This document shows positions 1-48,728 of a stretch of DNA of 64,000 nt, piece by piece. Position 1 is the stretch's first letter. Each line of letters begins with the position of its first letter. The notes under the pieces are model-generated. The model was given only the letters and a program-made list of their open reading frames with translations. It was not told the origin of the DNA and made no database searches. The position numbers were made by a program, and so were the translations under genes. Source of the DNA: a virus (taxonomy: Duplodnaviria > Heunggongvirae > Uroviricota > Caudoviricetes); the IMG/VR virus record IMGVR_UViG_3300024268_000012, one strand, 5' to 3'.

Positions 1-3000
1 ATAAATTGCTAAAATTTTGTCCATCATTAATCCAGCGAAGTTGATCCATAAAACTGAACCAGCACCAGAGAAGATGGAAGCATCTTTAAATGCATGACCT
101 GTGTCGTCATAAATATCAGGATCTTCAGATACTAATGTTGCATCAGTGTTGTAGTCCCAAGAAACATGTCCGGAATTGTTTACACCTAACTGAGTATCAA
201 TATCGTAGAAAATTGGGAACCAAATAAAATCACCGTTAGCATTAGACTTAGCAGTTGGACCCCATGTTGCAATCATCATATTCTTTTGACGAGAGTCATA
301 GCACAAAAGCAATTCAGTCATAATGAAATAGATTGCACAATAATCAAGATCAAAGTGCTCAGTAAATTCATTTCTGAACTTAGCTTTTCTATAGCGGATA
401 GAGTCAGTATCAAATTTCTCATAAAGATCTGCGCTAAAACCTTCCCAGACCAAATTTACTTCAATAGTAAATTCATCACGAGCATAGTTTTCACTAATCT
501 CTAATCCACAATTTGCAACTGCCTCTTGGTCACTACCTTCAGGCATTTCGTAATAGAATAATCCATCTTCATGTTTTACAAAAGTATAAGGTCCAACGTA
601 TTTCTCATAATCATGAGTCATACCATTAGCTTTATCTTCTTCAGTCAGAGTGCCATTTACAGCTACTAAGAAATCAGTAAATGTCTTAAGATTATTAACA
701 ATTACGCTATTTGCATTATCTGTTTCATTCAAAGTCTGATAAGCAGCTTGAATGGTAGGAGTAATATTTGCTTTTGTATAAGTCTGATCTGCGCCAAGAG
801 TATAATAAGTAACACCATGCTCATATTGAGAAGATAAGGTTAAATAATATTTGGTCGCATCTAATGCACTACCAGTGAACTTTGTGGTATCTGTGCTATG
901 TACCCAATCCCACATTACCTTAAAATTCTTGGTATGATCTTTAATATACTGATTTGCTACACCAATCTCATTATCTTTATAAACATCTCCGATATCCCAG
1001 TCTTCATAAGTATAACGAGGCTCGAAATGATTATAAATTTGTAGACGACCAGCATTTTCTTCAGTGTTAGGAATTAATTCGTAGAAACCATTCACATCAT
1101 CGCTTTGGAATTTACCAAGACCAGACTGGTTCTGGCAGAATTCCCAACATTCGGCTAACTCGCCAAAAGTACTCTTACGAGGCGTAGTTTCTTCTCTTAG
1201 CTCTTCATCATCGCTTAATTCATCGACCTTCTGCCAAGAGGTATGAATCTTTTCTACGGAATATGGATTATATACACGTTTTGTTGGGTCTAAATCCCAT
1301 CCAAAGTCAAAGCCAAATGTATTGGTAGCACCCTTATCAAGATTAAAATTGTACTTACCAACATACTCAATATTACCATCAATGTCTTCCCAGAATACCA
1401 AAATTGGGAATCCGAAAACAGTGGTTCTATAATCTTTGGTTTGACCAAAATATTTCTTTAATGGATGTCTCAAGTCTGCACTCTTGTCACTGCCAGTTTG
1501 ATTTGCAATAGTCTGGATCAAATTGGCAAATTGCGTATTATGTGTACTTGAACTTTCCATATAGTCAGCTTTTAAACAGAAAGTCTTCGCGGCGATACCA
1601 TTACCAATATCAATTTTAGAAATCATTTTACTTTCGTCATTATGATCTTGATACCAGTAATCTTTCTTGTTTTCGTCGCCATCCCAAGTTTCAAAGCGGA
1701 AAGGTTTGTCCCAACTTGTAATACCAGAAACTTTTTCTTGGGTCTTTAACTTATAATTACGACGTGGATAACCCTGAGAAGAAGTTCCTTGCACGTCCAA
1801 TTCAACATTCTGACAATGGAAGCCTTGACTTGGTTTAGCTGGATTCCAGAAACGAATACCAACAGCTTTCTTGTTTCCTTTTGCGTAAGGAAGTTTATTG
1901 TCAGCCGTAGCACCTACATCAGAATTTTTATAAGTTGTAATAACCATTGTTGGGATAATATCTGCTTGACGCACTTTAGCATAATCAATTTTATTACTTT
2001 CAACAATAGAACCATTGCGATTATAACGATTATGTCTCTCATCAAGAGTTGGAGCATCACCAATCCAGTTTTGAGTAATCGCAGAATAATTTAATGCATT
2101 TGTGTAAACACGAATATTAAAAATATCAACATCACAATAATCAGAGTTAATAACAATCTTATCAACGGAAGCGCTAAAGTCATCATTAGAAGTAAATTTC
2201 ATAATATTGGTCAAAACACCATTAACATATAAATAAATTAATGGAATAGTATTTGAAGTTGGAGCACCAGTTTCTGTATTATAAATCTGAGTAAATTTAC
2301 CAGCTGCATCTACTACGATAGAAATTTTTACTCTTTCATCATCGGTATAACGAGCATTAACAACTTTAGTTTTAGAAAGACTGAAGAAAGCCTCTTGAGT
2401 ACCAAGCATAAAACCACGATAGTTGCTAGGATTAAAATATGTTAAAAATGCTCCTTCGCCACTAGATACAGTTTTTACCTGTTCAGTTTCTGGAGTTCCA
2501 TCTTCGTCGAACATTGGGTTGCCATTAGCATCAATCTTTTGTACTGCTTTTTCAATAATTAAGCGAGAGTAATCAACAGCATTACGAACTTTAAAATCAA
2601 ATTCATAAGTACGAGAAGCCGCTTTGACAGTAGACATCGCTGCTAAAGGAATTTCAACAGAAGCACCATTGCTAACTCTTAAACAAGTACCTTCAGATTC
2701 ATCCTCAATCCAACCATTATTAGCCCAGTTAAAATTATTAAATTTAATTTCTCCAAGACCAATAGTATCATCTTGAGTTTCTGCTTTGTTTGGCCATTGT
2801 TGACGTTTATTTGGGGTTTCTAGATTAGAACGTCCAAGAGCATTCAAATATAAAACTGCACCTTTTGTAGCGTCAAGGTCCATCTTATAATTTGGAACAA
2901 TGAACACTTGGAATTCTTTATAAGTTAAACCGCACTGTAAAATGAAAGAGTTCATTTCATTTACATTATAAGTAGCGATAGTCCATGGTTGCCATTCGGT

Positions 3001-47666: not shown

Positions 47667-48728
47667 TTACTCCTTTGCCTTCTTGTTCTTGGCATTCCGG
47701 CAACACTTACACAAAGAATACCATCCATCTCTTGAACCTTTGTTTATGGAAAAAAATCTTGAATGGGCTAACTTAATTTGCCCACACCTAGTACATTTCT
47801 TCCACTTCCCATATTCTTTTTCAGTATAATACCAGGTCAGCCATTCATCTGTATAATAAGAGGCAATGAGCTTTGGAATTTTATTACGCCATAACGAAGA
47901 AATATATTCGAGCGAATGAGTGAAGCCGAATTCCTTTTCAATCATTTCCTTGATATCAACATTAGATTGCCCGTCAATTTTATATTCTACAATACGACGG
48001 TATAAAGGATAGCCGGCAAGTGAATTATCTACTAATCTATCAAAGTCTTCCATCATATACCAGGTATCACCCTCGAACCTGCCATAGCATCCTTCTTTTA
48101 GTTTAGAATAATTGCATAAAATAGTGCTAATAACAACGGGATTGATAAAGGACACACCTTCATACTGGATTTCTCCATTTTCATCTACCCATTCATCCCA
48201 TGGGAGTTTAATATAGTGTCCGATATTTCTTGTAATATTTCGCGCAACAATTGGTTGGCGGTAGGCGTTTTTAATAAGATATTGATCCTTCCGCAATTCG
48301 ATAATAGTTGATTTGATAATATAGGCTGCTCGCCCAGTCGCAGTTTTAGACAGCTTTTCCCAATATGCTATGCTGTCGCGCAACTGACGTAATGGCTCAA
48401 TTTCTTCTAAATCTTTTTTCGTAATTGTTACTTTCGGCTAAAATATTACATTCTTATCGTTCGTTACTAAATTATATATACCATCTTCGCCATTCTCCAA
48501 CTGGCCAACAAGACCCTCGAAAGATGTTTCTCGTTTATTGACAGTCGCCATACGGTTGTCGGTGAGAATCTTTCGCTCCTTCTTCTCTTGTTTCTCCATA
48601 CAAAGAACCAAATAATCAGCAAGGATTTCCAGATATTGCTCGCTTGGGTCGGGAGTCTCTGTTAAAATCTATTTCACCAATTCATTTCGCTCTTGAGGAG
48701 ATTCAATCGTATAATCTAGCTTGATTAT
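47667..48728 (-). CDS. Sigma70-r4-like HTH / C-terminal Zn-finger protein, putative late transcription factor (~353 aa; 2 TAG)
   Basis: Open frame across TAGs at 48669 and 48438. Strong SD GAAGGAGG but no ATG; probable ATA/ATT start. HTH-like RRIVEYKIDGQSNVDIKEMIEKEFGFTHSLEYISSLW and KKCTRCG...SLCKCC. Confidence 0.6.

Follow-up and report, generated by a model that had tools for sequence, protein, structure and literature searches.

We describe the distribution of a reassigned stop codon, TAG, in the late genes of a gut bacteriophage (Caudoviricetes) known from the IMG/VR record IMGVR_UViG_3300024268_000012, of which a window of 64,000 nucleotides was analysed. TAG, read here as glutamine (Gln), is absent from four genes whose products presumably make up the bulk of the virion, namely the major capsid protein (MCP), the two capsid-module proteins flanking it and the putative major tail (tube) protein, while it is common in other genes of the same operon. 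The four gene families avoid TAG almost completely in recoded relatives as well, and the ranking of genes by TAG use follows a codon bias that is also found in relatives without recoding. Mutation-selection balance acting on the reassigned codon is the probable explanation for this distribution.

TAG use in the late operon

The record comprises 168,738 bp (88% complete), and the window corresponds to its bases 60444-124443 on the reverse strand. Positions 1-48737 of the window hold 28 co-oriented open reading frames (ORFs) on the minus strand that are open only when TAG is read as Gln; this is the late (virion) operon of a large gut siphophage related to phAss-1 and to SPbeta/EF1-like phages. 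The late genes discussed below all lie on this strand, are given in window coordinates and are named by their lower coordinate where no function is assigned. An earlier interpretation made from the nucleotide sequence alone (the sequence-only reading) had reported high TAG counts in presumed low-copy parts of the virion, and all of these counts were reproduced: 42 in the tape measure protein gene (TMP, 21323-32698), 18 in the tail tip gene (15209-21202), 11 in gene 36246-36992, 8 in gene 33381-34664 and 7 in the portal gene (42755-44362). Its list of TAG-free genes also held. No in-frame TAG is present in the MCP gene (39529-40575; 11 CAG, 1 CAA), in the capsid-module genes just upstream (40599-41303; 13 CAG) and downstream (38874-39464) of it, or in the tube gene (35288-36220; 12 CAG, 1 CAA), which are the four genes that we call bulk genes. 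The remaining TAG-free genes are 41330-42739, 37008-37952, the presumed chaperone genes (34672-35205 and 32788-33312), the small terminase-like (TerS-like) gene 46489-47661, gene 14797-15183 and the four genes within 1-8595. In this genome none of the 43 Gln codons of the bulk genes is TAG, against 125 of 709 in the other late genes (Fisher p=5e-4), and the MCP, 40599 and tube genes clearly prefer CAG over CAA (11:1, 13:0 and 12:1). The zeros of genes 34672, 32788, 46489 and 37008 are of another kind. They are real in this genome, but they are small-sample zeros that arise because these genes have few Gln codons here, and their orthologs in relatives use TAG at 16-39% of Gln codons.

Several lines of evidence support the reading of TAG as Gln in the late genes. 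When nine late gene families were aligned with relatives, TAG columns were faced most often by Q (26%), then by K (13%) and E (12%). Among the 33 tRNA genes of the genome, a 91-nt gene located outside the window (genome c[33636,33726]) is the sole CUA suppressor; its acceptor stem resembles that of the phage tRNA-Gln and its discriminator base is G73. The suppressor tRNA also has a mismatched A1-C72 pair and an extra region that is long and unpaired. Gln insertion at UAG has been shown by proteomics in crAss-like phages only (PMC9523058). Searches of the 169-kb record, which is 88% complete, gave no match to PF00472 (release factor) or PF00749 (glutaminyl-tRNA synthetase), and competition by the host release factor 1 (RF1) is therefore plausible. 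TAG is confined to the late operon and lysis-proximal genes: the long genes of the opposite strand have none, and the early strand is essentially TAG-free. The base following TAG in this genome is T in 13.6% of cases versus 24% after CAA/CAG (p=0.012), a difference of doubtful weight, since it is absent in the head genes of relatives; of 43 true stops, 25 have T as the next base.

Avoidance of TAG in related phages

A portal search of IMG/VR yielded 80 related loci with 10-kb flanks, 47 of them recoded and 31 not. Recoded and standard-code loci are interleaved on a quick portal tree, which requires at least three changes of recoding status, and the avoidance of TAG in bulk genes is thus a property of several recoded lineages. 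When this phage is pooled with 25 relatives (26 distinct recoded phages), 6 of the 1013 Gln codons in bulk genes are TAG, as compared with 818 of 2989 in the other late genes; the sequences are akin, so that any p-value for this contrast is descriptive only. By family, the distinct recoded relatives use TAG at 0/276 Gln codons in MCP (counted over 24 of them), 1/299 in 40599, 1/189 in the tube gene and 4/151 in 38874. Gene 41330 takes an intermediate position (30/251), and in the remaining eleven families TAG makes up 19-47% of Gln codons, the highest value being that of 36246. Furthermore, the non-virion enzymes, the large terminase (TerL) and an HNH endonuclease, have the same TAG fraction as the portal. 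Taken over families, the pattern is close to two classes with two intermediates.

The number and position of TAG codons are much less stable than their absence from bulk genes. Counts range across relatives from 1 to 13 in the portal, 1 to 10 in TerL, 2 to 11 in 36246 and 42 to 103 in TMP, with no under-dispersion under a binomial model that includes gene and phage effects (X2/df=1.09). Conservation of TAG positions in related phages, which the sequence-only reading had put forward as a check, was not found: in protein pairs with at least 90% identity, TAG is kept as TAG in the partner at 44% of sites, CAA at 63% and CAG at 76%. TAG positions thus appear to turn over like synonymous sites. At aligned Gln sites of such pairs in the head and neck genes of recoded relatives, TAG is exchanged with CAA in 38% of cases versus 9% with CAG, although an exchange between TAG and CAA takes two base changes. 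Because TAG swaps with CAA far more often than with CAG, CAG appears to be a brief intermediate in genes under weak selection.

TAG avoidance goes along with a wider bias in codon use. Over 15 gene families, the CAG share in non-recoded relatives predicts the family TAG fraction in recoded phages (rho=-0.88, p=1.6e-5), and the TAG fraction is also negatively correlated with the share of C-ending codons (NNC; rho=-0.80) and with that of G-ending Lys/Glu codons (rho=-0.79). The MCP, 40599 and tube families are at the top of this gradient, 38874 (2.6% TAG) and 41330 (12%) in the middle and the others at the bottom. Since the same gene ranking exists without recoding and at other amino acids, avoidance of TAG is part of an older and general codon-bias gradient.

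Lastly, two of the bulk genes are followed by hairpins. A terminator-like, GC-rich hairpin with a T-run (39492-39513, minus strand) is located in the 64-nt gap that follows the MCP gene, and a terminator-like 14-bp hairpin with a run of eight T (35237-35268, minus strand) directly follows the tube gene. In distinct relatives, hairpins with a T-run and an energy of -10 kcal/mol or lower are present after the MCP gene in 75% and after the tube gene in 89%, compared with 0-20% for other head and neck genes. These hairpins appear to single out MCP and tube for special handling at the RNA level, and they are candidate terminators or stabilisers of a conventional kind of abundance control.

Explanations of the TAG distribution

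Codon-bias theory expects synonymous bias to be strongest where proteins are most abundant. Mutation-selection balance on a reassigned codon, which we consider the probable cause of the TAG distribution, would work in a similar way. AT-biased mutation would convert CAG to TAG (C to T at position 1) and to CAA (G to A) at similar rates, and TAG would behave as a third, non-optimal Gln codon that drifts up to parity with CAA under weak codon selection. The most TAG-rich family has 135 TAG to 124 CAA and every other family lies below that ratio; a TAG:CAA ceiling of about 1 is consistent with the neutral limit of a simple AT-pressure model, with no need of positive selection for TAG. In the bulk genes, selection for efficient and reliable translation would retain CAG. 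Each TAG would carry a small risk of RF1 termination or of slow decoding, a cost that would rise with expression and lead to the purging of TAG from these genes. The negative link between TAG use and abundance indeed suggests that decoding TAG costs something, whether through read-through below 100% or through slow decoding. Subunit ratios would mostly be set by conventional means, for instance by the hairpins after the MCP and tube genes, and a lower yield of the TAG-rich giant genes would be a by-product rather than a tuned setting. The likeness to classical translational selection is that the bias is strongest in the presumed bulk genes, with the same ranking at several amino acids and in relatives; the difference is that the disfavoured codon is here a reassigned stop, whose cost probably includes premature termination by host RF1 in addition to slow decoding. 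The cost of TAG, the balance model itself and the bound on read-through given below are what we infer from these patterns. A related case, the matching of late genes and tRNAs in T4, is cited by Borges et al. (bioRxiv 10.1101/2021.08.26.457843).

Some points weigh against this interpretation. Protein abundance is deduced from gene identity, codon bias and hairpins, and the identities of 40599, 38874 and the tube protein come from their position together with weak annotation. The TAG-free fibre genes at the start of the window, which are described below, are left unexplained by codon selection. Within this genome, TAG fraction shows no significant correlation with the G+C content at third codon positions (GC3) alone (rho -0.23, p=0.17), and GC3 was rejected as a sole explanation. 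The sequence-only reading had named local AT content or Gln count as what might account fully for the TAG fraction; this does not hold as worded, in view of the GC3 result, yet TAG counts do follow the number of Gln sites. Moreover, a cost of TAG and an attenuation by TAG are the same physical fact, which allows for a minor contribution of TAG to stoichiometry.

This last point leads to the proposal of the sequence-only reading that TAG load tracks virion copy number and acts as a stoichiometry dial: each TAG codon would be suppressed at clearly less than 100%, and selection would adjust the TAG number of each gene so that the resulting amounts of full-length protein give the subunit ratios. 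The sign of the association fits, as the bulk genes have no TAG and low-copy genes have many, and the two intermediate families, 38874 and 41330, are intermediate in TAG fraction and codon bias alike. Additionally, the first three tenths of genes have a slightly raised TAG fraction (0.33-0.37 vs 0.18-0.31), and Borges et al. suggest a regulatory role for recoded stops, which in their view are enriched or depleted by selection in particular gene families. The negative association of TAG use with abundance is real and family-wide. A tuned TAG number is another matter. Among TAG-using genes the count tracks the number of Gln sites (r=0.95), and the 42 TAG codons of TMP therefore reflect its length; it is the density that is roughly constant, at 1.11 per 100 codons in TMP, 1.31 in the portal and 0.90 in the tail tip. 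Counts vary widely between phages of the same architecture with no sign of stabilisation, positions are labile, TerL and HNH match the TAG fraction of the 12-copy portal, and the codon-bias ranking of genes is present without recoding. The tracking of copy number, which stands for the bulk genes, fails for the fibre genes, presumed to be of low copy and TAG-free here. The size of the effect is a further difficulty. Read-through should be near complete, because TMP carries 42-103 TAG codons, and up to 11 TAGs would therefore cost less than about 2-fold. A TMP with 103 TAG codons would need a read-through of about 0.98 or more per codon; at 0.98, 7-11 TAGs would leave a yield of 0.80-0.87 (a cost of 13-20%) and 42 TAGs would lower it about 2.3-fold, whereas MCP or tube subunits should outnumber those of portal or TMP roughly 100-fold. 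A dial is for these reasons quite improbable, and the mechanism would be at most a minor by-product. A weaker version, in which read-through of about 97-99% per codon would work as a length-proportional brake that lowers TMP with its 42-103 TAG codons about 2- to 8-fold and is exploited as one layer of stoichiometry beside terminators, is unlikely. In Q-beta A1 read-through, retroviral gag-pol and the G/GT frameshift of phage tail chaperones, recoding does fix a protein ratio. The resemblance to these systems would be a recoding efficiency below 100% that sets the yield of a longer product; they rely on one conserved site of defined efficiency, whereas the sites are here many and scattered, and conserved neither in position nor in number.

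The bulk genes could instead have stayed compatible with the standard code so as to be translated before or without the code switch, while TAG-bearing genes await the suppressor tRNA. They are indeed readable in code 11, and the contrast between TAG-free early genes and TAG-bearing late and lysis-proximal genes agrees with the published timing model. The bulk genes, however, belong to the same co-oriented late operon, where they are flanked by TAG-bearing genes, and capsid assembly requires the TAG-bearing portal. Timing would also not predict a gradient that follows codon bias at other amino acids and is present in non-recoded relatives, and such a temporal decoupling is very improbable. An origin of the TAG-free genes as recent imports from standard-code phages could draw on the non-recoded loci among the relatives (31 of 80), which alternate with recoded ones on the portal tree, and on TAG-free genes without strong codon bias, namely the fibre genes and the radical-SAM enzymes described below, the former having homologs with TAG in recoded relatives. 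For the bulk genes this origin is contradicted by the near absence of TAG from the same four families in every recoded lineage and by an identity to this phage that tracks that of the portal; for the fibre genes, neither five non-recoded relatives nor IMG/VR yielded a closer homolog. As an account of the TAG-free genes, import has hardly any probability in our judgement. What decides in favour of mutation-selection balance is the codon-bias gradient shared with phages that lack recoding, and no new regulatory mechanism is revealed.

That several recoded lineages keep TAG almost wholly out of their bulk genes speaks strongly, if indirectly, for a cost of reading a reassigned stop in a standard-code host, and this cost bears on the completeness of the code switch of these phages. 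Per-codon read-through would be bounded from below by a TMP with 42-103 TAG codons and from above by the purging of MCP. For annotation, the pattern explains why code 11 often leaves the MCP and tube genes of code-15 phages whole but breaks up the genes around them.

The TAG-free fibre block

A distal tail/fibre block of four minus-strand genes at positions 1-8595, the last of which continues past the start of the window, has no TAG. Followed to genome position 127737, the block has five consecutive genes, including a 73-aa gene outside the window, with 3914 codons and 0 of 124 Gln codons as TAG (p=6e-10). Its codon bias is ordinary and low (GC3 0.20-0.30, CAG share 0.31). Fibre homologs in recoded relatives do carry TAG, those of the giant protein having 8-21, and the zero is specific to this lineage. 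The block could have been imported recently from a standard-code donor not yet sampled. In this regard, the homologs in five non-recoded relatives have 27-38% identity and are no closer than the recoded ones, and no close relative of gene 6008 was found in IMG/VR. Radical-SAM enzymes encoded further downstream also lack TAG (0/43 Gln codons) with no strong codon bias and may be a parallel case.

Within the block, gene 4342-5988 is the GC-richest and the only one that prefers CAG. It is followed by a terminator-like hairpin (11 bp and a T-run; 4295-4322, minus strand), and it may code for a tail or decoration protein of higher abundance.

Relation to known recoded phages

Gut phages that use code 15 (TAG to Gln), with standard early genes and recoded late genes, have been described previously (Ivanova 2014; Yutin 2021, PMC7886860; Borges et al.; Peters 2022, PMC9523058). 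The phage studied here resembles them in having late-gene TAG aligned with Gln, a suppressor tRNA(CUA), TAG-free early genes and TAG-rich genes near the lysis end. Borges et al. report that recoded stops are enriched in lysis genes and in a crAss tail tubular family. These papers stress such enrichment and timing rather than purging from bulk genes; in the texts consulted we came across no explicit mention of a loss of the recoded stop from bulk virion genes, nor of a copy-number pattern or a link to codon bias in non-recoded phages, which is no proof that none exists. Three small genes at the end of the late operon, outside the window (genome 145264-147147; 125, 96 and 162 aa), have TAG at 33-42% of Gln codons and may form the lysis cassette, in keeping with the published enrichment in lysis genes.

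The closest described case is phAss-1, of the proposed Phassvirus group (Babkin et al. 2023, PMC10607447; OQ749652), a large siphophage that likewise reads TAG as Gln and whose tRNA array includes a suppressor. Its MCP is 52% identical to that of the present phage, and it shares TAG-free MCP, tube and capsid-module genes beside TAG-rich neighbours: TAG makes up 0/15 Gln codons in its MCP and 0/14 in its tube-like gene, as against 6/13 in the homolog of 36246 and 7/22 in that of 37008. It differs in being a separate genus-level lineage with a genome of 136 kb and three suppressor genes, compared with 169 kb or more and one suppressor here. Section 2.1 and the Discussion of the phAss-1 paper make no mention of which genes lack TAG.

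Other genes and features

Portal, large terminase, TMP, HNH endonuclease and a sigma-like factor were recognised in the window with PHROGs. The MCP has the HK97 fold, its AlphaFold model giving 115 PDB matches at E<=0.001 in Foldseek, to HK97-fold capsids and encapsulins. Besides that of phAss-1, its nearest named kin are those of Enterococcus EF1-like phages and SPbeta-like phages. The product of 40599 could be a scaffold or a cement/decoration protein, for which an atlas match to Phage_cement (PF22758) at rank 12 is a lead only, while that of 38874 matches phrog_30998. The tube gene product matches phrog_2729 (virion structural protein), and the gene is located upstream of three small genes that precede TMP. 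Ten head and tail genes had no Pfam match, and searching profiles of 36246, tube and MCP against PDB sequences gave no hits.

With regard to the TAG-bearing genes, gene 36246 is the most TAG-dense, with 11 of its 16 Gln codons as TAG here and 47% in relatives. It codes for a conserved, mostly helical 248-aa protein (AlphaFold pLDDT 76.5), for which Foldseek found no PDB match at E<=0.001 and VIA-align (wide) nothing above background. The portal (phrog_2739, E=1e-79) is followed by the head-module gene 41330, and TerL (44745-46487) has 2 TAG codons. The TMP, identified by TMP PHROGs, has 3791 aa and TAG at 42 of 220 Gln codons (19%); its orthologs of similar length in four relatives carry 103, 66, 49 and 59 TAG codons. 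The tail tip, a distal tail protein of 1997 aa, has TAG at 24% of Gln codons and 24-50 TAG codons in relatives, and gene 33381, between tube and TMP, codes for 427 aa. Between terminase and portal lies the 118-aa HNH/homing endonuclease gene (44376-44732, minus strand), with 1 TAG here and 37% of Gln codons in relatives.

Contigs from four animal-gut metatranscriptome runs, 85-99% similar to parts of 33000-42900, had the highest summed depth over tube and MCP. They were not used as evidence of abundance: they are assembled contigs of relatives, to which conserved genes map better, and their depth cannot rank genes.

Two further features were observed in the window. The 68-nt gap upstream of gene 32788 and the TMP gene contains a perfect sigma-70 consensus (33346-33374, minus strand; TTGACA, 17 nt, TATAAT, with an extended -10 TG), which may be an internal promoter for the tail genes. 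The divergent early region (48800-62400) has a GC content of 0.46-0.50, versus 0.30-0.44 in the late operon, and contains short ORFs only, with candidates on both strands.

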